From the IMG/VR virus record IMGVR_UViG_3300045996_000464, positions 7,289 to 71,288 of that record: a DNA stretch of 64,000 nt; one strand, written 5' to 3'. The notes beneath the pieces are model-generated. The model saw only the letters and a list, made by a program, of their open reading frames with translations, was not told the origin of the DNA and did no database searches. The position numbers and the translations under genes were made by a program. Shown here one piece after another: positions 20,594 through 35,103 of this stretch. This DNA comes from a virus. The first letter of the stretch is position 1. Every line of letters begins with the position of its first letter.

Positions 20594-20622
20594 TTGACAG
20601 CAAGATCGTCAGGTGGTAGTAT
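20594..20622 (+). promoter_or_regulatory. sigma-70-type promoter
   Basis: TTGACA-N17-TAGTAT upstream of a structured non-coding region. Confidence 0.65.
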
Positions 20623-20629
20623 GTTGATA

Positions 20630-20982: not shown

Positions 20983-20986
20983 ATAT

Positions 20987-21059
20987 GGGGATGTAGCTCA
21001 GTTGGGAGAGCAATTGCTTTGCACGCAATAGGTCGCGGGTTCGACTCCTGTCATCTCCA
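20987..21059 (+). tRNA. tRNA-Ala(TGC)
   Basis: Cloverleaf with G3:U70. Confidence 0.95.
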
Positions 21060-21105
21060 CTTTAGCGCTAAACGTCTGGGCATAGCCGTAAAACTAACCC
21101 TTCGG

Positions 21106-21296
21106 CAGGACGTATGATCCCAGGTTGAAATTTACTGCCCTCTCAAGATAATATCTCACGACCCGTGTAAGCCGGGTGGGGTGGTCATTTGCAAGACCCT
21201 CTCCGGGTAGGAGGCCCAGCCGATAGGGCAGACATCGGCGGTCGTTACAGGCCACACTGTAACAGGGTGCGCCCTAAACAGCGTAACACGTCCTGC
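21106..21296 (+). ncRNA. candidate structured ncRNA
   Basis: GCAGGACGT/ACGTCCTGC closing helix; CTGCCCT/AGGGCAG and GTTACAG/CTGTAAC internal helices. Confidence 0.5.
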
Positions 21297-21345
21297 GCAG
21301 CCCGTTGGAGCATTGCGTTCCGCGAGGGATAGGCGGGGACACCAT

Positions 21346-21418
21346 AGGCAATTAGCTCAGTTGGGAGAGCGTCTGCTTTACACGCAGAGGGTCGGGGGTT
21401 CAAGTCCCTCATTGCCTA
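21346..21418 (+). tRNA. tRNA-Val(TAC)
   Basis: Cloverleaf, loop TTTACAC. Confidence 0.95.
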
Positions 21419-21551
21419 CTAGCGTTCGGATTCTGACGACACCGAACGTGGTGCATACACCGAAAAGTCAGCGGTGGGTAACTCCTAGAGATATGCACAA
21501 GCCGTGGCAACTGTAGCGCTCCTGATGGAGTGGCGAACCCTGCGGCTCCAT

Positions 21552-21633
21552 GCAGATATGGCGGAATAGGTATACGCGCTGGTCTTAGAAACCAGTGGGG
21601 TGACCCATGCAGGTTCGATTCCTGTTATCTGCA
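21552..21633 (+). tRNA. tRNA-Leu(TAG)
   Basis: Type II cloverleaf, loop CTTAGAA. Confidence 0.93.
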
Positions 21634-21764
21634 CTAGCTCTGGAAGGTCGAGACTTCGTAATTGCGGTCAGGCGCACAGAGCAGTAAGATCATCTCAGCA
21701 AGGTTTCTCAGGAGGGGATGGATAGCGGTTGCTGAGTGCTATCCATCCCCACAGGGGAATCCTC

Positions 21765-21838
21765 GGACGTGTAGCTAAGCGGCTCAAGGCAGGGGACTCT
21801 TAATCCCAAGATCGTAGGTTCGAATCCTACCACGTTCA
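21765..21838 (+). tRNA. tRNA-Lys(CTT)
   Basis: Cloverleaf, loop CTCTTAA. Confidence 0.92.
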
Positions 21839-21939
21839 TAGCAATGGGTACCGGGTAGTACGTGTGTGCGGCGTATCCGCATGGGCCATCGGTCAATCCG
21901 TCTAAGGTGTACAACAGGAACCCGACTTCATTGCAATTA

Positions 21940-22011
21940 GGATGCATGGCAGATTGGTTATGCAGGCGGCTCTTAACCGTCGAGATGTGGGTTCGATTCC
22001 TACTGCATCCA
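21940..22011 (+). tRNA. tRNA-Lys(CTT), second copy
   Basis: Cloverleaf, loop CTCTTAA. Confidence 0.9.
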
Positions 22012-22220
22012 CTAGTGTGGCCGGGGGCGTTCAGCCCTAAGGTAGCCGCAAGGCAAGGGAGTCTACGGACTCACTAGGTTCTAGTGACCTAGCCCTACGT
22101 CACACGCAATAGTAGCTGGTCGTGCGCCTATGACGGGCGTACATAGGGTTCGATTCCCTAGTGAGCCTGGAAGGGTCTACCGAGGGCGGCGTGGCAGAAA
22201 CCACGGATCAGTGAAGTTTA

Positions 22221-22300
22221 GTCCGTATGCTGGAATTGGTATACAGGCACGGTTGAGAGCCGTGTGCGGAAGCATCCGAGTTCGACTCTCGGTACGGACA
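22221..22300 (+). tRNA. tRNA-Leu(GAG)
   Basis: Type II cloverleaf, loop TTGAGAG. Confidence 0.92.
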
Positions 22301-22344
22301 TAGAAAGACCAAGATGCGAACGGTAATGTGTGGAGGTAATTCAC

Positions 22345-22407
22345 ATGACACTTGGTGGAATTCTAGTTGTAATTCTGATTGTTCTTGTTCTGCTCTGGCT
22401 ACTCTAA
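22345..22407 (+). CDS. 20-aa single-TM microprotein (MTLGGILVVILIVLVLLWLL)
   Basis: GGAGGT RBS; almost fully hydrophobic ORF. Confidence 0.6.
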   Translation: MTLGGILVVILIVLVLLWLL

Positions 22408-22424
22408 AGGCACAGAGCAGCCTA

Positions 22425-22498
22425 GTTCACGTAGCTCAGTCCGGTAGAGCTTTCGGTTGAAGCCCGAAGAGTCGGCGGTTCAAATCCGTCCGTGAACA
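22425..22498 (+). tRNA. tRNA-Phe(GAA)
   Basis: Cloverleaf, loop TTGAAGC. Confidence 0.92.
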
Positions 22499-22511
22499 CC
22501 TTTTGGAACCA

Positions 22512-22905
22512 CCTTCCCTGGGCAAAGCGGTAGCTCCGTGCGCCCTTATGGGTTGGTGGGTGGTATGGCGGAAAAGCGCCTAGTTGCCTTCTCGCAAGGC
22601 GGGTGGCTAGGTGTTGAACGCACGTCTGGCGAAAATCCTGGGCAACCAGGATGAGTAGTAGTCGAATGAAAGCATCATTGTTGTACCCAGGGGCTACCGC
22701 TGAGGGAGGCAATGGTGTGGGCGAGGCGCAACCTCGTACAGCGATGGCGCGGCAGCGCAGGAATGGTCGGAGAGAAACCTATGATAAAGGCAGCTTTGCC
22801 TCTCCGTGTGGGATGCCAAGACCCACTATCACATCCAAATCCTTTGATTGGATAGGACGACAGGGAGATACCACTGGGTGGTGTCGAGGCAGACAATTCT
22901 CCCAT
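22512..22905 (+). ncRNA. candidate large structured ncRNA (~400 nt)
   Basis: AGCGGTAGCTCC/GGGGCTACCGCT long-range helix; several GCAA-capped hairpins such as ATCCTGG-GCAA-CCAGGAT. Confidence 0.55.
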
Positions 22906-22909
22906 CCAT

Positions 22910-22983
22910 GCCCCATTGGATTAGTGGTTTAGATCGCTGCCCTCTCAAGGCAGAGAACACGGGTTCGAATCCCGTATGGGGTG
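22910..22983 (+). tRNA. tRNA-Glu(CTC)
   Basis: Cloverleaf, loop CTCTCAA. Confidence 0.93.
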
Positions 22984-23085
22984 CTAGCTCAATGAAGGTG
23001 GGCCGCTTTCATTCAAAACAGACTGGAATGGGCACTCACCAGAGAGTAACCGTAGGAAAATTATATGCTCCTGCGGGTTATTTGA

Positions 23086-23156
23086 TGGCGTATCGTCTAA
23101 TGGTAAGACGCGGGGCTGTTAACTCCGTTATTCAGGTTCGAATCCTGGTATGCCAG
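23086..23156 (+). tRNA. tRNA-Asn(GTT)
   Basis: Cloverleaf, U1-A72, loop CTGTTAA. Confidence 0.9.
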
Positions 23157-23266
23157 CTAAAATGAACCAGAGATGACGGGAACGACTTAGGGCGGGGGAG
23201 TTTCCCTCGTGAACAGCGAAAACTGTCGGAGAGAAAACTGGAAATCTGCGCCCTTGAAAGGCGTAG

Positions 23267-23339
23267 ACGTGTGTAGCTCAGTCAGGGAGAGCGGTCGGCT
23301 TTCAACCGATGGTCGTGGGTTCAAATCCCACCACAATGC
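23267..23339 (+). tRNA. degenerate tRNA, TTC anticodon on a Lys-like body
   Basis: D, anticodon (CTTTCAA) and T arms intact; outer acceptor stem mispaired. Confidence 0.6.
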
Positions 23340-23404
23340 AGACTTAATGGCGTGCTGCACGATCCGCAGCCGTGAAGCCTAGTCACGATACGACGGGCAA
23401 TTAA

Positions 23405-23476
23405 TCCCGGATGGCGAAGAGGAAACGCAGGCGGCTGTTAACCGTCCATTCGTAGGTTCGAATCCTACTCTGGGAG
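23405..23476 (+). tRNA. tRNA-Asn(GTT), second copy
   Basis: Cloverleaf, U1-A72. Confidence 0.92.
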
Positions 23477-23505
23477 CTAGTCTCGTAAGCAACACAGGAG
23501 ATGAG

Positions 23506-23870
23506 CATGAAGTAATGTAACAACCCTGCGTCCATAGGACACGAGGCGCGTGGCCACGAAGACCAAACCATGTTAGCCTTGAGGGAACACCTTATGTGGT
23601 TGGGGTGAATGTTACTGTCAGCCGAAGCGGGATCACGTCGCCAAGGAAGCCGGGAACGTCTTGCTAGGCAGCTAGTGCCATTGCGGTAACAGCTAGCTGT
23701 TGGGCCTAGTACAGCGAAAACTGTGCGGAGGGTCGCCCGTAAGGTAACGTTGATTATATTTGGTTTTGCTTCCCGTCGCTGCATTGCGGCTGGCGGGACA
23801 TTCATTTAGATGCTATTTATAGCTGGGCGGACAGCTAGAGCCGGGGTGATAAGCGTCGGCATCCGTCAAC
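23506..23870 (+). ncRNA. candidate structured ncRNA region
   Basis: Several helices; contains the GGGAACGTCTT...CAGCGAAAA motif; no plus-strand ORF. Confidence 0.45.
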
Positions 23871-23873
23871 CTA

Positions 23874-23961
23874 GGAGCGGTCGCATAGTTGGCCGATTGC
23901 GCGGGTTTGCTAAACCCGTATGTCTGAAAGGGCATCCAGGGTTCGAATCCCTGTCGCTCCG
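23874..23961 (+). tRNA. tRNA-Ser(GCT)
   Basis: Type II cloverleaf, G73. Confidence 0.93.
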
Positions 23962-24026
23962 TAGCTAGAAGTCGTCTCGCCGGTAAAGCCACAGGCTGTA
24001 AAGCGGAACCGTTCTCTAGCTTACTT

Positions 24027-24108
24027 GGAATGTGTCCGGGTGGTGAGGGCGCTGTCTTGAAAACAGTTGCGTCGTGAGGCGTTGCAGGTTCGAATCCTGT
24101 GCATTCCG
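24027..24108 (+). tRNA. tRNA-Ser(TGA), short atypical D-arm
   Basis: Acceptor GGAATGT/GCATTCC, loop CTTGAAA, long variable arm. Confidence 0.85.
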
Positions 24109-24202
24109 TAGAGTTAGTCCCGGTGTGTTGGCCCGTACAGCCAGAGTCCGGGCTTGACTAGGTTGATCGCCTAGGATTGCAGCATCAGAACCGCTAACTC
24201 GT

Positions 24203-24289
24203 GGTTACATCGCATAGTGGTCTAGTGCGCCCGCTTGGAAAGCGGGTTGGGAGGAAATGCCCTCGTAGGTTCGAATCCTACTGTAACCG
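24203..24289 (+). tRNA. tRNA-Ser(GGA)
   Basis: Type II cloverleaf. Confidence 0.93.
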
Positions 24290-24467
24290 TAGAGAAGATT
24301 GTAGACGATCTTGCAGTCGAAGGAATGTGTCGCCTGAGCAAGCAGCCGCATTCCAGTCTTCTCTTTAGTTTAGGTCATAGTAAGATGCGTTCGACTCGCA
24401 TTGAAAGCTTGGTGTGTCGCAGGGTCGTGCTGGCCAGCCCTCTGCGTGACTCCCTGATCTAAAGCTT

Positions 24468-24538
24468 GCGCGATACAGTCATGGCGACGAGTGGGCCTCC
24501 AAAACCTTACTGAGCGGGTTCGACTCCTGCATCGCGTG
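24468..24538 (+). tRNA. tRNA-Trp(CCA), atypical D-arm
   Basis: Acceptor GCGCGAT/ATCGCGT, G73, loop CTCCAAA; very small D-arm and irregular anticodon stem. Confidence 0.75.
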
Positions 24539-24688
24539 CTAAGTCCTTTGTTGCTTGCCGTCCGTGAGGTATCTAGAACCGTAGCGGGTAGCTCAGGGTT
24601 AGATTCCCTGATAGGGCCACAGCGCCCTAGGCTGAGGGAACCACGCCCTTAAAGCGTGGTATTCTCGGCAACACTGGACTCCGGTTTA

Positions 24689-24761
24689 GCATCGGGCGCG
24701 TCCGGTAGATGCAGCCGAGCTTATATCTCGGCAAGAGCAGGTTCGACTCCTGACCGATGTA
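24689..24761 (+). tRNA. tRNA-Ile(TAT), non-canonical fold
   Basis: Acceptor GCATCGG/CCGATGT, 5-bp D-stem, 6-bp anticodon stem around CTTATAT. Confidence 0.8.
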
Positions 24762-24879
24762 CTCTAGTGTGGCTACGTTGTGCTTGCTGGCACCATGGCA
24801 GGAAACTGAGGCTGACCGTCCCTGGCGTAGATGCGCACCACACTGGAATATTAACACCCTCTCTGACGTTGGAGTAAGT

Positions 24880-25140
24880 ATGGAAAAGACACTGTACAAG
24901 TTCTACGCAGACTGGTGCGGGCCGTGCAAGATCATGAATCCAGTGGTTGACAAACTAGTAAAGACTCATGGTCTGGTGTTGGTGTCTGTCAACATTGACG
25001 ACGAACCACATCGCGCGCACGATCACGATGTACGATCCATTCCTACGCTCGTCTTAGAGCATGAGGATGGCAGCAAGACTCGCGTGGTAGGCGTAAGGCC
25101 GTACTATGCAACCGAGCAGGCGCTAGGCTTAACCGCTTAG
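24880..25140 (+). CDS. trxA: thioredoxin
   Basis: FYADWCGPCK active site and VRSIPT; GGAG RBS. Confidence 0.9.
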   Translation: MEKTLYKFYADWCGPCKIMNPVVDKLVKTHGLVLVSVNIDDEPHRAHDHDVRSIPTLVLEHEDGSKTRVVGVRPYYATEQALGLTA

Positions 25141-25152
25141 CGTTTGCACCAT

Positions 25153-25229
25153 AGACGTGTATACCCTCGCTCTGATAAGGCGTAGAAAGGTTAGCAGGTT
25201 ACACAGTGGTTCGAATCCACTCACGTCTA
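25153..25229 (+). tRNA. rearranged tRNA-Ile(GAT) with a D-loop-like segment 3' of the anticodon arm
   Basis: Perfect acceptor AGACGTG/CACGTCT plus A73, perfect T-arm, anticodon arm CGCT-CTGATAA-GGCG; no D-arm at the normal position. Confidence 0.7.
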
Positions 25230-25412
25230 CTGGCGAAAGCCAATGTCAGGGCAATGCCTATGGACGTAGCGCTAGCCGCGACCATGGAACCGAAGGTCAG
25301 ATTGGATCGTTCTTAGATGGCCGGACTTTTCCGGTCTGCCGTTCGTGAAAACTGAAACCGAAATCCATGAGATGCTAGTAGGCGCGGGTACTGGCACCCT
25401 TTTTAGAAAGAA

Positions 25413-25569
25413 TGGCAATGCAGTAAGTGATTACAATTGGAGAAAGTGGCCGAACCCAACGGTGACCACGAGAACGTCTTGACACAAAGTGGACGAAAGG
25501 CTTAATTAGCTGAGTAGGTAGAAGCGGGTCGAGCGAAAAGCGTGCGAGTTGATCGGTGACGCATTGCCA
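25413..25569 (+). ncRNA. candidate structured ncRNA upstream of tmRNA
   Basis: TGGCAATGC/GCATTGCCA closing helix; GAGAACGTCTT...GAGCGAAAA motif. Confidence 0.5.
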
Positions 25570-25576
25570 GTTTTAT

Positions 25577-25915
25577 GGGGATGAAATGGTATCGATTGCC
25601 AAGTAAATGGCATAGTTGCGAGCAGTGGTGACCGAGGCCACTTAAATCACGGTCAAACCAATAAATGCAGAGAACACTTCTGTAGCAGACACCTTCCCGG
25701 CCGAATGGGCTGAGGATCGTCTAGCCGTCGCTGCGTAAACGGATCAACAGAAACGCAGTCCAATGGGACACCCGCGAGGCCATCCTAAATACAACGGGTC
25801 TTGCTGATTAAGGCGGCTCTTGCAGCCGTAACGGGACGCGGCACCTTAGCCAGCTACGCTCGTAGACGCTAGTTGTTTCTTGTGTAAGACGCGAGTTCGA
25901 CTCTCGCCATCTCCA
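25577..25915 (+). ncRNA. ssrA: tmRNA; tag (A)AENTSVADTFPAEWAEDRLAVAA
   Basis: GGGGATG/CATCTCCA Ala-type acceptor, stemless D-loop, 3' T-arm; ATAAAT-GCA resume site at 25667; tag ends in AA-stop. Confidence 0.95.
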
Positions 25916-26027
25916 CTTAAGTGTATCGCCCGCCCAATGCCGGTTGCCGCTGGCTACGGGGCAACGGGTACGGCGGCAACCGTATTCACAATATCGGCTG
26001 TAGGCCGAGGCGGTAGGTTATGAATCA

Positions 26028-26100
26028 AGCGGGTTACCATTCTGGTGAAAACGGGAGTCTCATAAGCTCTCCCAGACGGGTTCGATCCCCGTACCCGCTC
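26028..26100 (+). tRNA. tRNA-Met(CAT)-like, atypical D-arm
   Basis: Acceptor AGCGGGT/ACCCGCT, loop CTCATAA, good T-arm. Confidence 0.75.
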
Positions 26101-26149
26101 CCTTCGTCGCCTATCCGGTTAGGCTAATAACCCCGGTGTGGCGGCTCCT

Positions 26150-26221
26150 GGCACCTTGACCGAGTGGTTTAGGTAGTGGACTGCAAACCCACGCACGCGA
26201 GTTCGATTCTCGCAGGTGCCT
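26150..26221 (+). tRNA. tRNA-Cys(GCA)
   Basis: Cloverleaf, U73. Confidence 0.93.
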
Positions 26222-26275
26222 TGTGGTAACCCGATCAAATGACAGTCGTCATTCCTAAACTATCGGGAGGTTGTC

Positions 26276-26587
26276 ATGACCGTATACTACAGCCCTGAGC
26301 AGTGGAACCTAGAGCCGTTCGCGGAACTAGAGTTGACTGAGCCGGACTATAGCTTCGATCTGGTGGTCGTGTGGCGACACAAGGACACTGGCGAGTTGTA
26401 CTTCGCTCAAGACTCAGGATGTTCGTGCCCTTCTCCGTTCGAAGACTTCACTAGCATCGATGATCTGATCCTCTTGTCTACGGACAACGATTACGATTGC
26501 TTGATGCGTGTGACGGATCGAGCGGACAACCGCGCGAATCGTGTGAGCTTTCTACGGAAGGTTCACGCGGCGATGCAGACTGGATGA
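26276..26587 (+). CDS. hypothetical protein (DSGCSCPSPFE motif)
   Basis: GGGAGG RBS, 103 aa. Confidence 0.75.
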   Translation: MTVYYSPEQWNLEPFAELELTEPDYSFDLVVVWRHKDTGELYFAQDSGCSCPSPFEDFTSIDDLILLSTDNDYDCLMRVTDRADNRANRVSFLRKVHAAMQTG

Positions 26588-26633
26588 TGGAACGGTTGCA
26601 TGTTCGACCCATGCGCGTCCGCTGCTCGCACAA

Positions 26634-26707
26634 GCCCCTCTAGCCCAACTGGCAGAGGCAGTCGGCTTAAACCCGACACAGTAACGGTTCGAATCCGTTG
26701 AGGGGTA
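26634..26707 (+). tRNA. tRNA-Leu(TAA), short variable loop
   Basis: Cloverleaf, loop CTTAAAC; resembles actinobacterial Leu(UAA). Confidence 0.92.
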
Positions 26708-26710
26708 CTA

Positions 26711-26806
26711 GCTGTACATTGTTGGTTCGAATCCAACTCCCGGCACTCACGCCGGGATAGCGAAGTGGCAGACGCGCCCTGGCTCATAACTGGGGAGACG
26801 TGCGGT
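26711..26806 (+). tRNA. circularly permuted tRNA(CAT), Met-like
   Basis: Order is T-arm (26721-37), acceptor 3' strand TCCCGGC+A, linker CTCAC, acceptor 5' strand GCCGGGA, D-arm, anticodon arm with CTCATAA, AGAC; flanks GCTGTAC/GTGCGGT are complementary. Confidence 0.75.
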
Positions 26807-26886
26807 GTAGTCGAAGAGGGAAGGGAACGAATGTCTAAGCCAATCGGGTGGATGCTCGATAGCGACACGAAAACCTCCTGAGACGA

Positions 26887-26970
26887 GCAGGACTGGTGGA
26901 ATTGGTATACACGGCAGTCTCAAAAACTGCTGCCTTCACTGGCTTGCGGGTTCGAGTCCCGCGTCCTGTA
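26887..26970 (+). tRNA. tRNA-Leu(CAA)
   Basis: Type II cloverleaf. Confidence 0.94.
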
Positions 26971-27020
26971 CTTAAGCGTAGGTGAAAGCCCTACTGACAG
27001 CCTGGAAAGACGGGCACCAT

Positions 27021-27093
27021 GCCTCCGTAAGCTTAATGGTAGAGCTACGGTCTTTTAAACCGAGGGTTGCGGGTTCGATTCCTGCCGGGGGCA
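27021..27093 (+). tRNA. tRNA-Lys(TTT)
   Basis: Cloverleaf, loop CTTTTAA. Confidence 0.9.
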
Positions 27094-27245
27094 CTACAGA
27101 AGGAAAGAGCAAACCGTGACTGAGGAAGCTAACGGACGGATAAACACGAAGGTCGGTCGCGCCGATCAAGCTTCCTGCCCTTAATGAGTGGGTACTCACG
27201 TCGCGTAGGCCGTCCTATATCGCACCTTCTGTTTTAGATTCACAT

Positions 27246-27319
27246 GGCCCATTAGCTCAGAGGAATAGAGTGTCGCGCTTCGAACGCGAAGGTCGCAGGT
27301 TCGATCCCTGCATGGGTCG
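27246..27319 (+). tRNA. tRNA-Arg(TCG)
   Basis: Cloverleaf, loop CTTCGAA. Confidence 0.92.
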
Positions 27320-27589
27320 CTGGTGCTAGTAACGATGAGCGGAACGTAGCGTTAGGGATGAGGTTGTGGAGTCATGACGAAACAGCCAAGAGACAGCCCG
27401 TTGATCGCGTGACAGTCGCTCGTAACTAGAGTGTGAGACAGGTATGTCCGCCACGGCCTGAAAAGGAAGGTGCCTCCACCGGACGCACGATTAAGTGCAG
27501 GGATCAGGAGGGTAAATGTAACGGAGCGCTCCGAGCGACGACAGCCCCCGTTTCTTGCACGTCACCAACTTTTGTGATAGGATGTACCT

Positions 27590-27769
27590 ATGGCACAAAA
27601 GAAGAACGTAGCTCAGACATCTGGCTGGCGCGGCAGGCAAGACAAGACTCGCCAGGACAGGATGCCAGCAGGGCAACGAGCGCGAGCAGTAGCACAGCAG
27701 GATCGCGTAAGTTGGATGAAGGAAACCAAGCCTACGTGCAGCAGGCATTGGACGTATCGCGAACATTGA
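27590..27769 (+). CDS. basic hypothetical protein (59 aa, probably leaderless)
   Basis: Hand-translated MAQKKNVAQ...; ATG 6 nt after TTGCAC-N17-TAGGAT. Confidence 0.5.
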   Translation: MAQKKNVAQTSGWRGRQDKTRQDRMPAGQRARAVAQQDRVSWMKETKPTCSRHWTYREH

Positions 27770-27783
27770 AAACTTAGAGAAGC

Positions 27784-27858
27784 CAGGATATAGCTCAGCT
27801 TGGACAGAGTGCGCCCCTCGGACGGGTGAGGCCGTAGGTTCGAATCCTACTATCCTGA
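27784..27858 (+). tRNA. tRNA-Pro(CGG)
   Basis: Cloverleaf, C1-G72, loop CTCGGAC. Confidence 0.92.
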
Positions 27859-27929
27859 TCAGATGTATGCCTAGAGTTGTCGGCTCTGTAGGCACCGGGT
27901 GGCCACCCGATTAAATTGAACCGTCACCA

Positions 27930-28005
27930 CAGTGTGTAGCTCAGTTTGGTTTAGAGTACTCGCCTTGGACGCGAGAGGCCGTTGGTTCGAATCCAACCAC
28001 ACTGA
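27930..28005 (+). tRNA. tRNA-Pro(TGG)
   Basis: Cloverleaf, loop CTTGGAC. Confidence 0.93.
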
Positions 28006-28098
28006 TAGCACTCTCCGAGGGCGCTATATGCGTTAAGAAGCGGAGGTTCTCAAAGTTGGGCGAAAGCTCTGCGGCGAAGAGTAGGAGAGGGCGATTCA

Positions 28099-28173
28099 CA
28101 GGATATAGCTCAGTCTGGTTAGAGTACTTCGTTGGGGACGAAGAAGCCGCAAGTTCGAATCTTGCTATCCTGA
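28099..28173 (+). tRNA. tRNA-Pro(GGG)
   Basis: Cloverleaf, loop TTGGGGA. Confidence 0.93.
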
Positions 28174-28202
28174 CTCGATTCTCCGTACACGGAATAGGTG
28201 AC

Positions 28203-28442
28203 ATGTGGGCGAGAATCTTCTACGGGCCGAGCGATTGGTTCATTCATCATACTAACGCACGACAGCGAGCAGCCATTAACTTTTGGTTGCTCTTCATCTG
28301 GATCATTCCAGGCGTCTTCATCTGGTACGTACTGCGAGATGCGCTGTGGTTCGTAGGCTTCATGAGCATTTACGCAATCTGGGTTAGCCACTTCGGTGGA
28401 TTCAGCGCAGAGACGCCCGTAGAAAACGAGAATGGCGACTAG
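28203..28442 (+). CDS. small membrane protein (2 TM)
   Basis: ATG after AGGTG; two hydrophobic Trp-rich segments. Confidence 0.65.
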   Translation: MWARIFYGPSDWFIHHTNARQRAAINFWLLFIWIIPGVFIWYVLRDALWFVGFMSIYAIWVSHFGGFSAETPVENENGD

Positions 28443-28717
28443 GCTACCAACCTAGGTCAGTACACAAGCCTCCCACTGAGATGTGGGGCATCGGGACGAT
28501 ACGCCCCTCAAAAGGCGGAACGTCTTGATGTTTGGTGGACAGGTCACCGGACGGTCTTGCCTTGGCAGGATCGAGCAGCCCGGTAAAGTCGCACTCAATC
28601 GACGGTTAGAGTGTTGACAGAATTATAGGTGCGCGGCCTAACGGAGTCTAGTGGTGAGGGCTTTTCTCCCCGTCTTCACGCAACACTGCCCTGTTCAGAA
28701 CAGCGGTGTTGCTCCAT

Positions 28718-28788
28718 TCCTGGATCGTCTAACGGTAGGACAGCGGCCTCTGAAGCCGTATATGGTGGTTCGAATCCATCTCCGGGAG
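28718..28788 (+). tRNA. tRNA-Gln(CTG)
   Basis: Cloverleaf, U1-A72. Confidence 0.93.
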
Positions 28789-28810
28789 CTAGCCGCAAGG
28801 CTGAATTGTT

Positions 28811-29068
28811 GGTGCTTCAAGTCAGCGACGAGTCAAGGCCGTGTAGGGCCGCTTAAGCAGAGCCGTCTGAGCGATCACCTATGCGGGTGTTCGCGGTCGG
28901 TACAACTCGTAGACACAACGAAGCCTAACCTCACAAGAGTAGGTGGTGGAGGGTACCTAACCTGGGTGAAATTAGAAAACATGCATGGGTACGAAGACCA
29001 TAGCGGCCTGGGGAAACCACTGAGGGTATGAGGGAAAGTCTGCTCACGGAGTGAGCGGAGCCAGCACC
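28811..29068 (+). ncRNA. candidate structured ncRNA (~260 nt)
   Basis: GGTGCT/AGCACC closure and internal hairpins; lies between two tRNAs. Confidence 0.4.
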
Positions 29069-29082
29069 GTGTAAGGTACAAA

Positions 29083-29160
29083 GCCAGTTCGCCCAAGGTG
29101 GGCACGGCGGCTGTAACCCGCCCGTCTCAGACACGATAGGTTCGATTCCTATAGCTGGCA
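29083..29160 (+). tRNA. tRNA-Tyr(GTA), compact D-arm
   Basis: Acceptor GCCAGTT/AGCTGGC, loop CTGTAAC, long variable arm, 5-nt D-loop. Confidence 0.85.
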
Positions 29161-29256
29161 TAGTTGTGAAAGCCGCACAGAAGGGCAAAGGGTGCTTATG
29201 CCCGGACAGGTCTTGCTAAGGAAAATGACACCCCTCTTTAGCGTCACAACTAACTC

Positions 29257-29297
29257 GCTAGTATAGTAGTCTGGCTGACTACACCCGGCTGTAACCC
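29257..29297 (+). pseudogene. orphan 5' half of a tRNA-Tyr(GTA)
   Basis: GCTAGTA, D-arm and CCCGG-CTGTAAC-CC, then breaks off just before the HNH ORF. Confidence 0.7.
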
Positions 29298-29303
29298 TTT
29301 GTT

Positions 29304-29669
29304 TTGGGTTACATCGCGCAGGTAATTGGCATGAGAGACAGAAATGCTTATGCGCGAGACGTTACGTACCGTAAACCGGGACGCAAAGAGTACATAATAG
29401 CGTCTAACAAAAAGCGGCGAGCAGCAACCGTACAAAGGTTGCGCGATTACAAGTTAGAACATGGTTGCGCTGAGTGCGGCTTTAATGACTGCGCTAGTGC
29501 CCTAGACTTCCATCACCGTAATGGTGACGAGAAGTTGTTTAGCCTCGGTTCAGCAGCAGCCCAGGATTATGGATGGGATAGGCTCGCAGCCGAGATAAAG
29601 AAATGCGATATTCTTTGCGCAAATCATCATCGCATGAAGAATTGCAAATGTCACGCTAGCATGGTGTAA
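29304..29669 (+). CDS. HNH endonuclease (homing-type)
   Basis: CAECG...LDFHH...EIKKCDILCANHHR motifs. Confidence 0.85.
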   Translation: MGYIAQVIGMRDRNAYARDVTYRKPGRKEYIIASNKKRRAATVQRLRDYKLEHGCAECGFNDCASALDFHHRNGDEKLFSLGSAAAQDYGWDRLAAEIKKCDILCANHHRMKNCKCHASMV

Positions 29670-29725
29670 AGGTTGCACACTGGTCTGTAAAACCACGAGA
29701 CTAGGTTCGATTCCTAGTGCTAGCA
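29655..29725 (+). tRNA. tRNA-Tyr(GTA), short variable loop
   Basis: Acceptor GCTAGCA/TGCTAGC, loop CTGTAAA; overlaps the HNH stop codon. Confidence 0.88.
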
Positions 29726-29792
29726 CTCGATGAGATGATGACAAAGCTATCGGTCGTCACGCCTATGACCTAGGTCGAAGAGGATAGCACGA

Positions 29793-29868
29793 TCCAAGGT
29801 TACTCTGTTGGCACGGGTGGCGCGGCTTTGAACCGTTGCAATCGTGGGTTCGATTCCTACCCTTGGAA
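29793..29868 (+). tRNA. tRNA-Gln(TTG)
   Basis: U1-A72, loop CTTTGAA, irregular anticodon stem. Confidence 0.82.
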
Positions 29869-30031
29869 CTGAGCAGGAGAACTACATGGCGATTGAGGGC
29901 CACGAACCCAAGAGCATCGTCTAACGGATGAACCTGCTGCGGGTGTACGGGTCGTGCCGTTACCCTAAGTTGCACGAAGAGGCGTTTGACGGTAGCCACA
30001 ACTTCGCTAACCCAGAGGGAAACCGTCGCTT

Positions 30032-30105
30032 GATGCTGTCGTCTAGAGGCTTAAGGCACCGCCCTGTCACGGCGGATATCGCGGGTTCGAATCCCGTCAG
30101 CATCG
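30032..30105 (+). tRNA. tRNA-Asp(GTC)
   Basis: Cloverleaf, G73. Confidence 0.93.
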
Positions 30106-30209
30106 TATGGGTCACAGTAGGTGATTCAGCCGGAATCGGCAGCTAGTCTTGTACCTCCCGTTGGGGTCGTGCCCAACAATAGGGTGCTGTACATGTGCCC
30201 CGGCAGCAA

Positions 30210-30282
30210 CGCCCCTTAGTTCATTGGTCTAGAACGCCCGCCTGTCCAGCGGAAGAGACGAGTTCGATTCTCGTAGGGGTGG
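30210..30282 (+). tRNA. tRNA-Asp(GTC), second copy
   Basis: Cloverleaf, loop CTGTCCA. Confidence 0.88.
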
Positions 30283-30495
30283 CTGAATTCACTACTAATG
30301 AATCGTGGTCTGTGCCAACTGTCATAGACGCCGAACATACACAAGAACACCTTGCCATCGCGCGGGGTGATAGGAAGGTAACAAGCCTTGTGAATCCCAA
30401 TTCCTGGCAAGGCTGGATTGGGAACCTTCCGAACAAGGGTTACGTCCAGCGCCCCATCCGTAGAGGGTGGTAAGCGGGGGTAGCGTGCCCACCAT

Positions 30496-30569
30496 ATCAG
30501 AGTCGTCTAATGGTCAAGGACACCAGACTTTCAATCTGGGCAATGCGGGTTCGACTCCCGTCTCTGATA
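30496..30569 (+). tRNA. tRNA-Glu(TTC)
   Basis: Cloverleaf, loop CTTTCAA. Confidence 0.93.
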
Positions 30570-30638
30570 CTAACTCGATGGATATCACATCGGGGGCGCA
30601 TGGGGTGCAATTCCCATTAGAAACATGCGCTTGCTTTA

Positions 30639-30712
30639 GCATCAGTAGCTCAGTGGTAGAGCATCCGCGACATGGTAGCGGAAGGTCATGGGTTCGATCC
30701 CCATCTGGCGCT
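30639..30712 (+). tRNA. tRNA-like gene with a 9-nt anticodon loop (GACATGGTA)
   Basis: Normal D and T arms; TCCGC/GCGGA stem; anticodon not assignable. Confidence 0.7.
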
Positions 30713-30830
30713 CTGGTGATACGTAACGGTGGCCTACGCTTCGGCGGACAATAGTGCGCCTAAGTCGTATCACCAACATTCAGGTCGGAGCTTACCCGAT
30801 ACACAGGAAATCCTATTGTTAGGAGCTACT

Positions 30831-30992
30831 ATGTATCACCGATCTGATGCCAGTCTCCGACGCATCGCAAAGAAGCGCGCGAAGAGACATGGTACTACGG
30901 CAAAGGACTTCAAACGGAAGGGCTTGCGGAGGCGCTGGCTCGTTCATCAGCTAGCCGGACATAACGGCTACAAGAACACCGATTTGCCGTAA
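30831..30992 (+). CDS. small basic protein (53 aa)
   Basis: AGGAG RBS before ATG; Arg/Lys-rich. Confidence 0.55.
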   Translation: MYHRSDASLRRIAKKRAKRHGTTAKDFKRKGLRRRWLVHQLAGHNGYKNTDLP

Positions 30993-31033
30993 ACGACAAG
31001 GTGGACTCCTAAACGTGCAGGGGAGTCCGTCAC

Positions 31034-31105
31034 GCCAGCTTAAGCCTAATGGTAGGGCACATCCCTTGTAAGGATGGGGTACGGGTTCGATTCCTGTAGT
31101 TGGCT
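31034..31105 (+). tRNA. tRNA-Thr(TGT)
   Basis: Cloverleaf, loop CTTGTAA. Confidence 0.92.
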
Positions 31106-31107
31106 CT

Positions 31108-31184
31108 GTGGATGAAGCTAAAGTGGCCGAAGCTCTGGGTTGTGATCCCAGCGAAAGCGGGTTCAAGTCCCGTCATCCACCCCA
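31108..31184 (+). tRNA. tRNA-His(GTG)
   Basis: Cloverleaf, C73, encoded CCA; T rather than G at position -1. Confidence 0.92.
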
Positions 31185-31185
31185 C

Positions 31186-31260
31186 GGTGAACGGGTAGCC
31201 TTTGGCGGCTACGGCGGGTTGTGATCCCGTTGGCAGCGAGTTCGATTCTCGTCGTTTACC
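31186..31260 (+). tRNA. tRNA-His(GTG), extended D-stem
   Basis: G-1:C73; GTAGCC/GGCTAC D-stem. Confidence 0.85.
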
Positions 31261-31265
31261 CTTAA

Positions 31266-31379
31266 GCGGACGTAGCTCAGTTGATGAGAGCATCGTGGCG
31301 TTAACCCACTCGCGCTAGAGCGCTCTAGGTGCGGTGGCTGTCACGAAGGTCGGAGGTTTGATTCCTCCCGTTCGCTCCA
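31266..31379 (+). ncRNA. tRNA-Gly-like body with a ~44-nt structured insert replacing the anticodon loop
   Basis: Acceptor GCGGACG/CGTTCGC+TCCA, D and T arms; TCGTG/CACGA stem extended into a long hairpin. Confidence 0.7.
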
Positions 31380-31445
31380 TGTTCCGGTGTGGTTCCACGG
31401 TTCTCACATCGGCCGCTGACAGACCCGTGGTTCCTGTCAGCATTC

Positions 31446-31518
31446 GCCTGACTGGTGCTAATGGATAGCATACGTCGTTGGTATCGACGGGGACAGAGTT
31501 CGATTCTCTGGTTAGGCT
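31446..31518 (+). tRNA. tRNA-Thr(GGT)
   Basis: Cloverleaf, loop TTGGTAT. Confidence 0.92.
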
Positions 31519-31612
31519 TGTGACCCACTACATGGAGGCGCACACATGCGCAACTCACTTGCCCAAACCATGTAGGTAGCAATAGTGCTACCTCATCGTT
31601 TGGGAGGTAAAG

Positions 31613-31798
31613 TTGGCCAGAAAGTCTCAGGCCGAAATTGATCTTGGTTCTCTTGGCAAGGGCAAGAAGAAGGACAAGAAGAACAAGAATCGCAAGTACG
31701 GGCGTAACCTCAAGAAGTGCGCCAACTACCGCTTGCGCGTCGGTAAGCCCCTCGGAAGAGGCGTATCCGGCAACAAGCGCGGCAAGAGCCACGTTTAA
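31613..31798 (+). CDS. small highly basic protein (61 aa)
   Basis: GGGAGGT RBS before TTG; Lys/Arg-rich. Confidence 0.65.
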   Translation: MARKSQAEIDLGSLGKGKKKDKKNKNRKYGRNLKKCANYRLRVGKPLGRGVSGNKRGKSHV

Positions 31799-31802
31799 AT
31801 AT

Positions 31803-31877
31803 GGGAGTAGTCAAGGTTCAAATCCTTGCCCTGGCCCCACAAGGGTCGGGAGGTAGTGTTAGCGGGCGCACGCTCCC
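31803..31877 (+). ncRNA. YrlA-like / permuted tRNA-like RNA
   Basis: GGGAG/CTCCC closing stem encloses T-arm, then acceptor-like hairpin, then D-arm. Confidence 0.7.
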
Positions 31878-31925
31878 CTACATCATCGGGTATGGATTCC
31901 GCCCGAGGCCCAAAAGGGATCACCC

Positions 31926-31998
31926 GCCAATCAAGCTTAAGTGGCTAAGCGCCTGTTTCGTAATCAGGAGGTTCTCGGTTCGAATCCGGGGATTGGCT
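31926..31998 (+). tRNA. tRNA-Thr(CGT)
   Basis: Cloverleaf, loop TTCGTAA. Confidence 0.88.
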
Positions 31999-32039
31999 TA
32001 CACTCCTAAATCAAAACCCACCATTGTGTACGGAGACGC

Positions 32040-32291
32040 ATGAAGAAACTACTACTCGTTCCGGTCATGGCCCTCGCGCTGTTCGTTGGCGCAGCGGCAG
32101 CACCGGCTAAGACCCCGGTGTTCGGCACCGAGGATTCATGTGCGGCAAGCTTCTCAATCGAGAATGCTCAAGCATGTGGCTCTAACCCGACACCCTATAT
32201 CGTTCACTGTAGCTATAACTCATCCACTGGCCACTACTTCGTCGGCTGGTCGGACGGACGCTGGTACTACAACCCGAACGGCTGCTGGTAG
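32040..32291 (+). CDS. small secreted Cys-containing protein
   Basis: GGAG RBS; MKK-hydrophobic-AxA signal peptide; 4 Cys. Confidence 0.7.
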   Translation: MKKLLLVPVMALALFVGAAAAPAKTPVFGTEDSCAASFSIENAQACGSNPTPYIVHCSYNSSTGHYFVGWSDGRWYYNPNGCW

Positions 32292-32477
32292 AAACACGGT
32301 GGGCCACCAGCCGTTCAAATGGTGGCTATAAGGTTGGTTTCAATGAAAAAGAACACTGGAATCGCAGCTTACAGGCTGATCCTGCGGAAACGGCCATGGT
32401 ACCGTAGATGGTACGCCCTGACGCTCTATTTTTACTACCGTACTAAGATCAGGCTCACATCTCACCTGTAATGGGTG

Positions 32478-32552
32478 ATGAGTACGATCCTAATCCTAGT
32501 AGTTCTGGCCGTAATCCTGGTATGGGTTCTCTGGCCAGACATTCGGAGGTAA
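32478..32552 (+). CDS. 24-aa single-TM microprotein
   Basis: Hand-translated MSTILILVVLAVILVWVLWPDIRR. Confidence 0.45.
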   Translation: MSTILILVVLAVILVWVLWPDIRR

Positions 32553-32555
32553 GAA

Positions 32556-32663
32556 ATGTCAAAGGGTGACAAGGTAGAAGTACAGGCAGCGCAGAAGGGT
32601 AGCCCCAAGAAGGGTTCTGGCTGGCGCAACGTAGGCAAGAAGCTACGCCGAAAGAAGAAGTAA
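32556..32663 (+). CDS. 35-aa basic microprotein
   Basis: GGAGGT RBS; MSKGDKV...KKLRRKKK; TAATG overlap with the next gene. Confidence 0.6.
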   Translation: MSKGDKVEVQAAQKGSPKKGSGWRNVGKKLRRKKK

Positions 32664-32914
32664 TGAGCGAGCTAGAAGAGACAGCCAAGCGGCTAGCTAA
32701 GGCTAGCGAAACAATCTATTCCAAGGCGGATGAAATCAAGGCTGTCGCGGATCAGTTGCGTTCGGACGTAGATGTTCTTACGGAACGACTCGACGCGGTT
32801 GAAAGTGATGCAACTCACGTTGCAGAGAATCTAACCGCAACTAGTGAGAAGGTTGAGGGGCAGCAAGTTAAGCAGGATGATCGTCTAGACACTCTAGAGA
32901 ACGGCAACACATAG
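32663..32914 (+). CDS. coiled-coil hypothetical protein
   Basis: 83 aa with heptad-like pattern. Confidence 0.65.
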   Translation: MSELEETAKRLAKASETIYSKADEIKAVADQLRSDVDVLTERLDAVESDATHVAENLTATSEKVEGQQVKQDDRLDTLENGNT

Positions 32915-32985
32915 GCTATTAACTCAGTTGGGAGAGTACCTCGTTGACATCGAGGAAGTCACTGGTTCAAGTCCAGTATAGCCTA
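32913..32985 (+). tRNA. tRNA-Val(GAC)
   Basis: Cloverleaf, loop TTGACAT. Confidence 0.94.
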
Positions 32986-32990
32986 CTCAT

Positions 32991-33062
32991 GGGGAATTAG
33001 TGCTAACGGGAACACATCGGTTTTGCATACCGAAATTAAGGGTTCGACTCCCTTATTCTCCA
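32991..33062 (+). tRNA. tRNA-Ala(TGC), second copy
   Basis: Cloverleaf, G3:U70. Confidence 0.92.
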
Positions 33063-33082
33063 CTTTGTGCTATACTTAGAGT

Positions 33083-33226
33083 ATGACCGAGAAGATGAAA
33101 GTCAAAGGTTCCAGCGAGGTTGTCCAGGTCACCGGCAAGAGCGGCGATTATTACCGCGTCTACGTCAAGGGTGTGTCTGGTTACTATCACGACTGGTACC
33201 ACAAAGATCAGTTGACTCCCGCATAA
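33083..33226 (+). CDS. 47-aa SH3-like microprotein (probably leaderless)
   Basis: Hand-translated MTEKMKVKG...WYHKDQLTPA; ATG 6 nt after TGC-TATACT. Confidence 0.55.
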   Translation: MTEKMKVKGSSEVVQVTGKSGDYYRVYVKGVSGYYHDWYHKDQLTPA

Positions 33227-33295
33227 GTAGCTCAGATTGGCCAGAGCAGGTCGTTGCCAACGATCAGGTCGTGGGTTCGAATCCCATCTTATGCT
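33221..33295 (+). tRNA. tRNA-Gly(GCC)
   Basis: Cloverleaf, U73. Confidence 0.93.
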
Positions 33296-33345
33296 TAGCT
33301 CGTTCGTGGGTGAGGGTACCCAATATGACCATGTTCGGGCTTTCA

Positions 33346-33420
33346 AGTCTCATTAGTGTTAGCGGTTCAGCACTACAGTCTTCCAAACTGTAAGCATCGG
33401 TTCGAATCCGATATGAGACT
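33346..33420 (+). tRNA. tRNA-Gly(TCC)
   Basis: Cloverleaf, loop CTTCCAA. Confidence 0.9.
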
Positions 33421-33561
33421 CTTCCACGGACAGTCCTCGCAGGGTATCCTAGGGCAGTTAAACACACTGCGACCATTCGGCCCGAGACGGAGCTAGGTTG
33501 ACGGTATCAGAATGCAGAACATCTAGGGTCGTGTTTACTGATGAGGCTTAACCGTGGATAT

Positions 33562-33634
33562 GGTTGCGTAGCTCAGAGGATAGAGTGCCTCCCTGCGAAG
33601 GAGGAAGCCGCTGGTTCGATTCCAGCCGTGACCA
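33562..33634 (+). tRNA. tRNA-Arg(GCG)
   Basis: Cloverleaf, loop CTGCGAA. Confidence 0.92.
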
Positions 33635-33766
33635 CTAGACCGTATGTTCCAGATTGCCGCCGTTGACGAACGGGTCTGCCCCTGGACTTGAGAATCCAAC
33701 TCTTGCATCTAACGTGGATGTAAGCAAGGGTTCCAGACGGTCTTTCATGTACAACCCGGAGAAAGC

Positions 33767-33955
33767 ATGTACAAGGACGCAAACAAGTTGACGGTGCGCG
33801 AAGGATACGAATGGGCGCTAGCTGCCGCAACTGCTGCCGAGCATGGCAGTGGCTCTAGCAACACCCACGTTCCTGCTGCCTATCAGGCTGCATATGACGC
33901 TGGGTACAACTATGGCACCGCTGTGTTGAAGCCCATGAAGCGCAACACTCACTAA
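33767..33955 (+). CDS. hypothetical protein
   Basis: GGAG RBS, 62 aa. Confidence 0.55.
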   Translation: MYKDANKLTVREGYEWALAAATAAEHGSGSSNTHVPAAYQAAYDAGYNYGTAVLKPMKRNTH

Positions 33956-33957
33956 TT

Positions 33958-34257
33958 TGTAGCACAGACTGCGGCTGTCAGATTCAATCAACTGGCAGAG
34001 GAAAGTCCGGGCACCTGCTTGGCGGGAATTCAACCGCGCAAGCAAACGTTCACACGAGCCTAGGAGATGACCTTAACTTTTCGAAGTTAAGATGAATCGC
34101 TTAACTAGTAAGGTGGCGGGGTGCGACCCCAAGACGTGCGGCTGAGATGCTGACACAGGTAGGGGGCAGGTAGACGTGAGTCTCCCGCGATAAATAGCGA
34201 GTTAGATCGTAGTCCTTCCCCGCAAGGGGTTGACAGAACCCGGCTTATCGTGCTACA
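33958..34257 (+). ncRNA. rnpB: RNase P RNA (compact, divergent)
   Basis: P4 signatures GAGGAAAGTCCGGGC and ACAGAACCCGGCTTAT; P1 TGTAGCAC/GTGCTACA; P2 GACTGCGG/TCGTAGTC; P3 and P19 hairpins. Confidence 0.9.
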
Positions 34258-34266
34258 CTGTATTGC

Positions 34267-34461
34267 ATGAAGTTACAGCGTGAAACTGCGCCGACGCCCG
34301 ATGGCGAAATCCCGGAGTGGGAGCAGCTTTACTGCTGGTCATGTTCCGCCAACAAGCATCACCGTCTGGTCACGATGATGGATTCAGATCATGGCACAGA
34401 GGCTCTACATCAGTGCATGAATTGCAACACTGTTTCACAAGCGTTTTACCCTGCTACGTAG
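34267..34461 (+). CDS. zinc-ribbon hypothetical protein
   Basis: Two CxxC pairs; follows TTGACA-N18-TACACT. Confidence 0.6.
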   Translation: MKLQRETAPTPDGEIPEWEQLYCWSCSANKHHRLVTMMDSDHGTEALHQCMNCNTVSQAFYPAT

Positions 34462-34525
34462 CCAAGTGGTCTAAGGCAGCGGCCTCATAAGCCGCCACTC
34501 GTCAGTTCGAATCTGACCGTAGCGA
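34452..34525 (+). tRNA. tRNA-Met/Ile2(CAT)
   Basis: Cloverleaf, loop CTCATAA. Confidence 0.9.
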
Positions 34526-34526
34526 T

Positions 34527-34712
34527 ATGGCTAAAATAAACCAAGCAGCAGAGAAGCGGCTCAAGAACGAAGAGTACGCCAAGAAGTTCGAAAAGAAGAA
34601 GGAACCACAGGTTCGTGGCAAGAAGGAAAAGCCGAAGCCGAAGTTCGCTAATTGGTGTCGGGCTAAGGGGCATCCAGCATCTTGTCAGGTAGACGCATGT
34701 CCTCAGCCGTAA
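34527..34712 (+). CDS. small basic Cys/His protein
   Basis: 61-aa ORF directly after a tRNA. Confidence 0.5.
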   Translation: MAKINQAAEKRLKNEEYAKKFEKKKEPQVRGKKEKPKPKFANWCRAKGHPASCQVDACPQP

Positions 34713-34799
34713 AACATAATCATCTCACTAGGGATATCAAGCGCCCTGGTGTTTGCCCCAAGTGCGACGAGTATCACAAACGTCCAGGCGGGCAGCTAA

Positions 34800-34871
34800 G
34801 TCCTGGTAGCTCAGAGGAAGAGCTTTCGCCTCCTAAGCGAATGGTCGCTGGTTCGAATCCAGTTCAGGACG
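34800..34871 (+). tRNA. tRNA-Arg(CCT)
   Basis: Cloverleaf, loop CTCCTAA. Confidence 0.93.
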
Positions 34872-34984
34872 TTATGAAATGGTATTGTAGGCGTTGCGGG
34901 TACGTCATGAATGGTATAGCTCAAACGTGGCGCGGTGATGGCCCGTGGTGTCCCACACCAAAATGTAAGGGTATGAAACTAACG

Positions 34985-35058
34985 CGCGGGATGGAGCAGT
35001 CAGGTAGCTCGTCAGCCTCATAAGCTGAAGGTCGTAGGTTCAATTCCTACTCCCGCTT
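34985..35058 (+). tRNA. initiator-like tRNA-fMet(CAT)
   Basis: CGCGGGATGGAGCAG body, C1 x U72 mismatch, TTCAA T-loop. Confidence 0.9.
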
Positions 35059-35103
35059 CTAACCTCCTAAGTGTGGATTGTGACCACAACCGAGGGAGGT
35101 AGC

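Follow-up and report, generated by a model that had tools for sequence, protein, structure and literature searches.

A phage tRNA array carries a predicted RNase P RNA with an intact catalytic core and a non-canonical specificity region

An RNase P RNA-like gene was found inside the tRNA array of a phage, and it combines a complete catalytic domain with a specificity-domain region that does not follow the bacterial pattern. RNase P RNA is counted among the core ribozymes of the cell. The DNA analysed, called the window here, is a stretch of 64,000 nucleotides of an IMG/VR viral record, and cmscan with RF00010, the Rfam model of bacterial class A, placed the gene at positions 33956-34263 on the plus strand (308 nt). 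This bore out the initial annotation, which had proposed an RNase P RNA at 33958-34257 from the letters of the sequence. The match covers the full model (model positions 1-367) at 64.4 bits with an E-value of 2.7e-19 in a 651-nt search with permissive filters, and the same match had an E-value of 7.1e-21 when searched over the whole contig. The curated gathering score of RF00010 is 100 bits, so at 64.4 bits the element falls outside class A by this score and a default Rfam scan misses it; such a scan of the window at gathering returned the tmRNA and 39 tRNAs and left RNase P RNA unlisted. The resemblance to RNase P RNA is far beyond chance, and from its sequence the element is judged to be a phage-borne homologue descended from class A bacterial RNase P RNA.

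The element has a GC content of 0.532, compared to 0.529 for the window. Parts of the element and its junctions recur without differences in contigs from three soil runs, which belong to two studies and may include the window's own source. No variants were seen in contigs of four soil DNA runs, in some of which the stretch was partly without cover. One contig from run X1 joins the tRNA-Arg to the element (33595-34162) and a second contig crosses from the element into the downstream genes (34197-34629), both with 0 differences.

All parts of the element described below lie on the plus strand. The pairings of P1, P2, P3 and P19 and the two P4 strands, which had been recognised from the start, were all confirmed by pair checks. 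The 5' strand of P1 (33958-33966) pairs with 34248 and 34250-34257 of the 3' strand (34248-34257) through eight consecutive canonical pairs plus A33966-U34248 (9/9), and P2 is formed by 33967-33973 and 34208-34214 with 7/7 canonical pairs, one of them G-U. The P3 hairpin (33975-33998) has eight canonical pairs out of nine and one A-A mismatch, and the P19 hairpin CCCC-GCAA-GGGG (34218-34229) has 4/4 pairs. The two P4 strands match the Rfam consensus at every position: the 5' strand within CR-I, GAGGAAAGUCCGGGC, at 33998-34012 and the 3' strand within CR-V, ACAGAACCCGGCUUA, at 34233-34247. Positions 34003-34005 pair with 34244-34246 and 34007-34011 with 34239-34243, which gives eight pairs around the bulged U at 34006.

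The remaining catalytic helices were located by the covariance-model (CM) alignment. The P5 5' strand CACC (34012-34015) pairs with GGUG at 34120-34123 (4/4), and J5/15 follows at 34124-34126. It reads CGA where the consensus has CAA, and CAA is also what three other viral elements (L002, L003 and L045) carry, in contrast to the window element. The P15 region (34127-34165, 39 nt) was aligned with high posterior probability and also appeared in the constrained fold. In it, CCCC at 34127-34130 pairs with GGGG at 34162-34165 (4/4) and encloses a short P16/17-like hairpin (34136-34156) and an L15 loop with GGU at 34158-34160. Here CACAGGUAGGGG is aligned to the consensus ucCGGGUaggcc, and the GGU that serves for pairing with the tRNA 3' RCCA is kept. 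The hairpin AGAC-GUGA-GUCU at 34172-34183, with 4/4 pairs and a GNRA loop, stands where the alignment expects P18 and is provisionally assigned as such. An extra small hairpin, CGC-GAUAAAUA-GCG, was seen before J18/2 (34186-34199) in constrained folds only. Overall, 49 of the 50 modelled pairs of the catalytic domain are canonical and, as modelled, the domain is complete (P1-P5, P15-P18, P19) and not especially compact. An initial description of a compact catalytic domain with a divergent specificity domain is therefore right in its second half, as the CM skips 104 nt there, and not in its first. Likewise, the P15-P18 region had been called very short; P15-P17 is indeed short at 39 nt, yet it is present, and so is P18 with its GNRA loop.

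Two helices of the initial annotation are probably misassigned. It had paired ACCTG with CAGGT and had drawn a GGGG-TGCGA-CCCC hairpin between them. The latter is better read as the P5 3' strand GGUG, the J5/15 CGA and the P15 5' strand CCCC, and the CM makes CAGGT the L15 loop with its GGU. A fold constrained to the CM pairing reached -101.3 kcal/mol compared to -95.3 kcal/mol for the ACCTG/CAGGT pairing, which is 6 kcal/mol better. Since the CM-type pairing (P5 CACC/GGUG, P15 CCCC/GGGG) both fits the class A plan and gives the more stable constrained fold, these models favor it and the ACCTG/CAGGT helix is probably wrong.

The non-canonical specificity-domain region (S-region) spans 34016-34119 on the plus strand, and these 104 nt were skipped by the CM as local ends. 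The predicted fold consists of a 29-nt hairpin (34016-34044) and a long irregular stem (34047-34118) whose tip is an 8-bp UUCG-loop hairpin (34072-34091). Its minimum free energy was -32.0 kcal/mol, with a z-score of -2.84, and two of 200 shuffled sequences folded equally well. For comparison, every element fetched from the viral, metagenome and genome collections that is anchored on both P4 strands was put into a reference set of 249. Of these, 230 have the CR-II motif ACAGNRA and 226 the CR-III motif GTGAAA, and neither motif occurs between the P4 strands of the window element, in agreement with an early remark that the usual junction motifs were missing. A class A S-domain, as judged by CR-II, CR-III and P7-P14, was thus not found in the window element. 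Among the matches listed, 239 other RNase P loci were compared and none resembled its S-region. The order of segments in the S-region is CACACGAG, a hairpin and AUGAAUC, and in the compact viral element L045 it is CACAGUGACGA, P12 and GUGAAAC. From this likeness, CACACGAG and AUGAAUC hint at degenerate remnants of CR-II and CR-III rather than wholly foreign sequence.

The element sits on a contig of 71,288 bases, an IMG/VR viral record with a CheckV completeness of 48%. Structural genes for baseplate J, tail lysozyme, portal and terminase were found on it, together with replication and repair genes (Pol III alpha, DnaB, a DnaC-like loader, primase and RecA) and a ribonucleotide reductase (RNR). 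With baseplate, portal, terminase and replication genes of its own, the contig supports the earlier view that the RNA is phage-encoded. The portal shares about 40% identity with its counterparts in Rhodococcus phage Finch, Gordonia phages Stormageddon and Pupper and cluster C mycobacteriophages, and the contig is an actinophage-like myovirus. A search of the 71 kb contig (48% complete) for RnpA (PF00825) found none; the initial annotation had seen none in the window either.

The presumed substrates, 46 tRNA genes with a single tmRNA gene, form an array at 20469-35059 on the plus strand (ARAGORN, Rfam). ARAGORN listed 45 tRNAs and the tmRNA, and the 46th tRNA was found with a predicted intron. 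The element shares the strand of this array and lies inside it, 34 kb from the start of the window and flanked on both sides by phage genes and tRNAs. Some of the tRNAs in the array are only 1-4 nt apart. The element fills a gap of 311 nt that no ORF of at least 30 amino acids spans from end to end, and one minus-strand frame (33818-34045) overlaps its 5' part. Two small ORFs flank it, at 33767-33955 and 34267-34461. Neither ORF62 nor ORF64 had a Pfam family or relatives in any fetched locus, and a search of IMG/VR with ORF64 returned the window's own record alone. ORF64 has two CxxC pairs and resembles a zinc ribbon. A promoter-like site, TTGACA-18 nt-TACACT with an upstream TG, was seen at 34230-34259, where it overlaps the 3' end of the element and faces ORF64 and the tRNA-Met; 0.6 such sites are expected by chance per region. 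A scan of the element region found no gene-specific promoter or terminator.

The neighboring tRNA genes bear on what the element could act upon. The 3' CCA is encoded by only 1 of 45 tRNA genes, so a contact between L15 and CCA would need prior CCA addition. The triplet TAG stands directly after 15 of 45 tRNA genes and with an offset of one after two more, as a shared 3' trailer motif. The 46 tRNAs cover 19 amino acids, and tRNA-Trp was not among them. The tRNA-Ala(ggc) at 31266-31379 has a predicted 35-nt intron (ARAGORN intron option) and a 111-nt Rfam tRNA match of 47.6 bits, and the tmRNA at 25577-25918 scored 108.3 bits and has the tag peptide AENTSVADTFPAEWAEDRLAVAA. The initial annotation had spoken of about 50 tRNA-like RNAs, non-canonical ones among them, as substrates. 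The count here is 46 tRNAs and a tmRNA; as to non-canonical forms, one tRNA has a predicted intron and no permuted or rearranged tRNAs were seen in the array, so the idea of special non-canonical substrates is unsupported here.

The occurrence of RNase P RNA in a tRNA array was not confined to this phage. IMG/VR was scanned for both canonical P4 strands at four spacings, and the scan gave 0 loci at a gap of 170-199 nt, 2 at 200-230 nt, 16 at 231-260 nt and 20 at 261-290 nt. At 11 of the 38 loci, 10-28 tRNAs were present within 2 kb on each side. The array loci are L306, L308, L315, L318, L321, L323, L326, L328, L331, L336 and L338, plus L045, which belongs to a 176 kb record rated 100% complete (G004), lies inside a 24-tRNA array and has compensatory changes in P4. 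RNase P RNAs in or next to dense tRNA arrays thus occur on at least 12 further IMG/VR contigs, up to 463 kb in length, and "rarely seen in viruses", as it had been put at first, was an understatement. L306, L308 and L315 share a local order of Asp-Cys, RNase P RNA and Gly.

Five array-embedded copies were scored and reached 177-253 bits, from which we infer that their S-domains are canonical. The window copy is the structural outlier of the set and the sole scored copy below 177 bits. RnpA was found in none of 12 viral records that bear an RNase P RNA (the window and 11 others), including records rated 100%, 100%, 97% and 94% complete. G004, G006 and G007 had no portal match to the window phage, which places them outside its clade and the RNase P RNA gene in several phage lineages. 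Array-embedded phage RNase P RNAs are a grouping seen here and not a published family, and the window element belongs to it. Many of the remaining IMG/VR loci lie at contig ends without tRNAs and are probably host flanks. In Burkholderiales, Bacteroidales, Flavobacteriaceae and other groups, elements of compact size are normal genes of the chromosome, and 109 of 119 compact metagenome elements had no tRNA within 2 kb among the matches listed. A metagenome contig of 475 kb (L076) has a compact RNase P RNA with eight tRNAs within 2 kb on each side, and it may be another huge phage.

Relatives of the element itself were sought with several methods. Blastn of the element against GenBank phages and against plasmids gave no match, and two further viral RNase P RNAs likewise found none in GenBank phages; at the sensitivity of blastn, no viral RNase P RNA was found in isolated phages. 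Among the matches listed from the scans with both P4 strands, at least 119 metagenome and at least 120 genome loci, there was no sequence like the element outside P4. In the named relatives Finch, Stormageddon, Pupper and Cali, 0 of 4 had a match better than an E-value of 0.38.

A portal search with a single sequence found no relatives of the phage, and one with an alignment that included G001 found nine clade relatives with 57-71% identity. None of the nine, all fragments at 3-60% completeness, had an RNase P RNA match. The most telling of the nine is G011, the closest syntenic relative. Its RNR is 78% identical to that of the window, and its array, which is syntenic, has 42 tRNA matches and a tmRNA at 114.4 bits. 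Sensitive cmscan found no RNase P RNA in this array at E-values up to 1, and the P4 motif was absent even with three mismatches allowed. The syntenic site between tRNA-Arg(gcg) and tRNA-Met measures 460 nt in G011 (L182 16379-16838) compared to 816 nt in the window, and it is without the RNase P gene and both small flanking ORFs, with the downstream lysine-rich ORF conserved. Since the gene is missing at this site, it either entered this lineage as an accessory insertion or disappeared from G011, and its absence from the nine clade relatives, G011 included, marks it as dispensable for the clade.

Judged by its sequence, we lean towards the view that the element is an active ribozyme which, with the RnpA of its host, processes the tRNA precursors of the phage. 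The RNA would have been captured from a cell or from another phage, and long residence in phage DNA could have matched its base composition to that of the phage. It would be transcribed together with the tRNA array and assemble with RnpA of the host, which is presumed because no RnpA was found on the contig. The holoenzyme would then cut the 5' leaders off the 46 phage pre-tRNAs and the pre-tmRNA, and the benefit may be added processing capacity during infection or independence from the host RNase P RNA. The intact core would carry the catalysis, with the bulged U of P4, J5/15 and the pairing of the L15 GGU with the tRNA 3' end. The first A of the J5/15 consensus CAA is one we take to be A248 in E. 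coli numbering. According to the available text of PMC11143913, A248 stacks on the +1/+72 pair of the tRNA, and two interleaved T-loops of the S-domain bind the tRNA elbow. In the window element, elbow recognition by the two T-loop motifs would be lost or replaced by the two new hairpins, and substrate binding would then be weaker, more protein-dependent or differently tuned.

Several observations count for a working ribozyme. The change is confined to one domain, with an intact core and an unalignable S-region, which argues for selection on the core and not general decay. The S-region folds better than 198 of 200 shuffles, the L15 GGU and the GNRA-capped P18 are kept, and the element has a same-strand place in a tRNA/tmRNA array with phage-like GC. 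The other array-embedded viral copies, the lack of RnpA in all 12 records and the identical sequence in three soil runs point in the same direction. Other observations count against it: the score below gathering, the J5/15 CGA and the absence of the elbow-binding CR-II and CR-III, to which a reported loss of cleavage of one pre-tRNA upon deletion of the E. coli S-domain (PMC11143913) adds weight; the failure of the searches to find a homologue of this variant, its absence from G011 and the record of 0/9 in the clade and 0/4 in the named relatives; and the single CCA-encoding gene among 45 tRNA genes with no gene-specific promoter or terminator.

The main rival to a working ribozyme is an inactive relic, in which a captured canonical RNase P RNA had its S-domain wrecked by rearrangement and the loss is too recent for the core to have decayed. 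We consider this rather unlikely. It would account for the absent S-domain motifs, the sub-gathering score and the off-consensus J5/15, and for the window copy being the lone scored array-embedded viral copy below 177 bits. A gene missing from G011 and from nine of nine clade relatives is dispensable, as a relic would be, and the lack of sequence variants in three runs means that there is no sign of purifying selection. However, neutral decay would not be expected to leave 49 of 50 core pairs and a perfect P4 beside 104 unalignable nucleotides. The replacement region forms stable hairpins, including the 8-bp UUCG stem (z -2.84), it is about as large as a reduced S-domain and so does not look like a simple deletion, and the base composition of the element matches that of the phage.

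A non-catalytic mimic, which would bind host RnpA or pre-tRNAs without normal turnover and so redirect or throttle host tRNA maturation for the phage, is a clearly less probable explanation. In bacterial holoenzymes the RnpA-binding region lies in the C-domain, and this domain is intact in the element with the substrate-recognition module lost, as a mimic might be built. A decoy role was also discussed for the orthopoxvirus RNase P-like RNA, but sequestration is reported to have been ruled out for that RNA in the available text of the same source (PMC3001073). A mere protein sponge would have no need of the catalytic nucleotides of P4, and these are perfectly conserved; moreover, with 46 tRNAs of its own, the phage depends on RNase P itself. 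Least credible of all is host DNA, in the form of a bacterial rnpB fragment in a chimeric assembly, or a chance resemblance: host flanks do occur in IMG/VR, where several exact-P4 matches lie at contig ends without nearby tRNAs, but the element is 34 kb in with phage tRNAs and genes on both sides and on the same strand, soil-run contigs cross both junctions with 0 differences, its GC equals that of the phage, none of the 239 fetched elements listed resembles it outside P4, and an E-value of 2.7e-19 rules out chance.

Beyond the working-ribozyme reading of this one element, we propose more tentatively that large, tRNA-rich phages are undescribed carriers of RNase P ribozymes that borrow RnpA. 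In the window phage the core would have been kept by selection and the elbow domain rebuilt into two hairpins, which could make substrate choice independent of the elbow or tune it anew, for example to phage precursors or tmRNA. The link between phage tRNA arrays and RNase P RNA is a recurring one and apparently undescribed. If phages with tRNA arrays routinely bring an RNase P RNA, their takeover of translation reaches the tRNA-processing enzyme itself, beyond tRNAs and tmRNA. The element would then be one of few natural examples in which a catalytic domain of bacterial type works with a non-canonical specificity domain, and it may show how far the substrate-recognising half can change. With an RNA of about 300 nt and 46 neighboring substrates, the long-standing question of the S-domain's part in substrate choice and induced fit would become directly testable. 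Elements of this kind fall below the Rfam gathering threshold and are missed by standard annotation.

The literature searched, with subscription journals outside its coverage, gave no description of a phage-encoded RNase P RNA or of copies in phage tRNA arrays. Three papers on tRNA arrays (PMC4758250, PMC5966550, PMC6409571) were listed with zero occurrences of "ribonuclease P". The element is best compared to class A RNase P RNA (RF00010, the E. coli M1 RNA type), with which it shares the order of helices, P1-P5, the L15 GGU, P18, P19 and the P4 strands. It differs in the two-hairpin region of 104 nt that replaces P7-P14, CR-II and CR-III, in the J5/15 CGA and in being phage-encoded without RnpA. 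With the other array-embedded viral copies it has in common the viral contig, the same-strand position in an array, the lack of RnpA and a length of about 300-330 nt, whereas the scored ones keep canonical S-domains and there is no similarity to the window element outside P4. The Pyrobaculum "type T" RNA is a natural minimal archaeal RNase P RNA whose catalytic domain works without the usual elbow-binding module; in the window element, by comparison, the S-region is replaced and not deleted.

Catalytic domains of types A and B without an S-domain cleave pre-tRNA with or without protein at lower affinity, and deletion of the E. coli S-domain (residues 94-204) abolished cleavage of one pre-tRNA and spared pre-4.5S RNA, as described in the available part of PMC11143913. 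Those RNAs are S-domain-less laboratory constructs, unlike the window element, in which 104 nt of structured RNA take the place of the S-region. The RNase P-like RNA of orthopoxviruses (camelpox) is also virus-encoded. It belongs to a eukaryotic virus, is credited in the text available with "some secondary structure similarity" alone and did not process pre-tRNA in vitro (PMC3001073), whereas the window element is a clear sequence homologue of the class A core and lies among tRNA genes. The closest published parallel found comes from Actinobacteria: Mycolicibacterium austroafricanum, in which their S-domains are divergent, and M. sp. YC-RL4 have extra copies of RNase P RNA that were acquired horizontally (Behra et al. 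2022, PMC9569102). According to the accessible portion of that paper, the same genomes have an extra tmRNA resembling that of a mycobacteriophage. The Mycolicibacterium copies are chromosomal and flank an endonuclease gene (PMC9569102).
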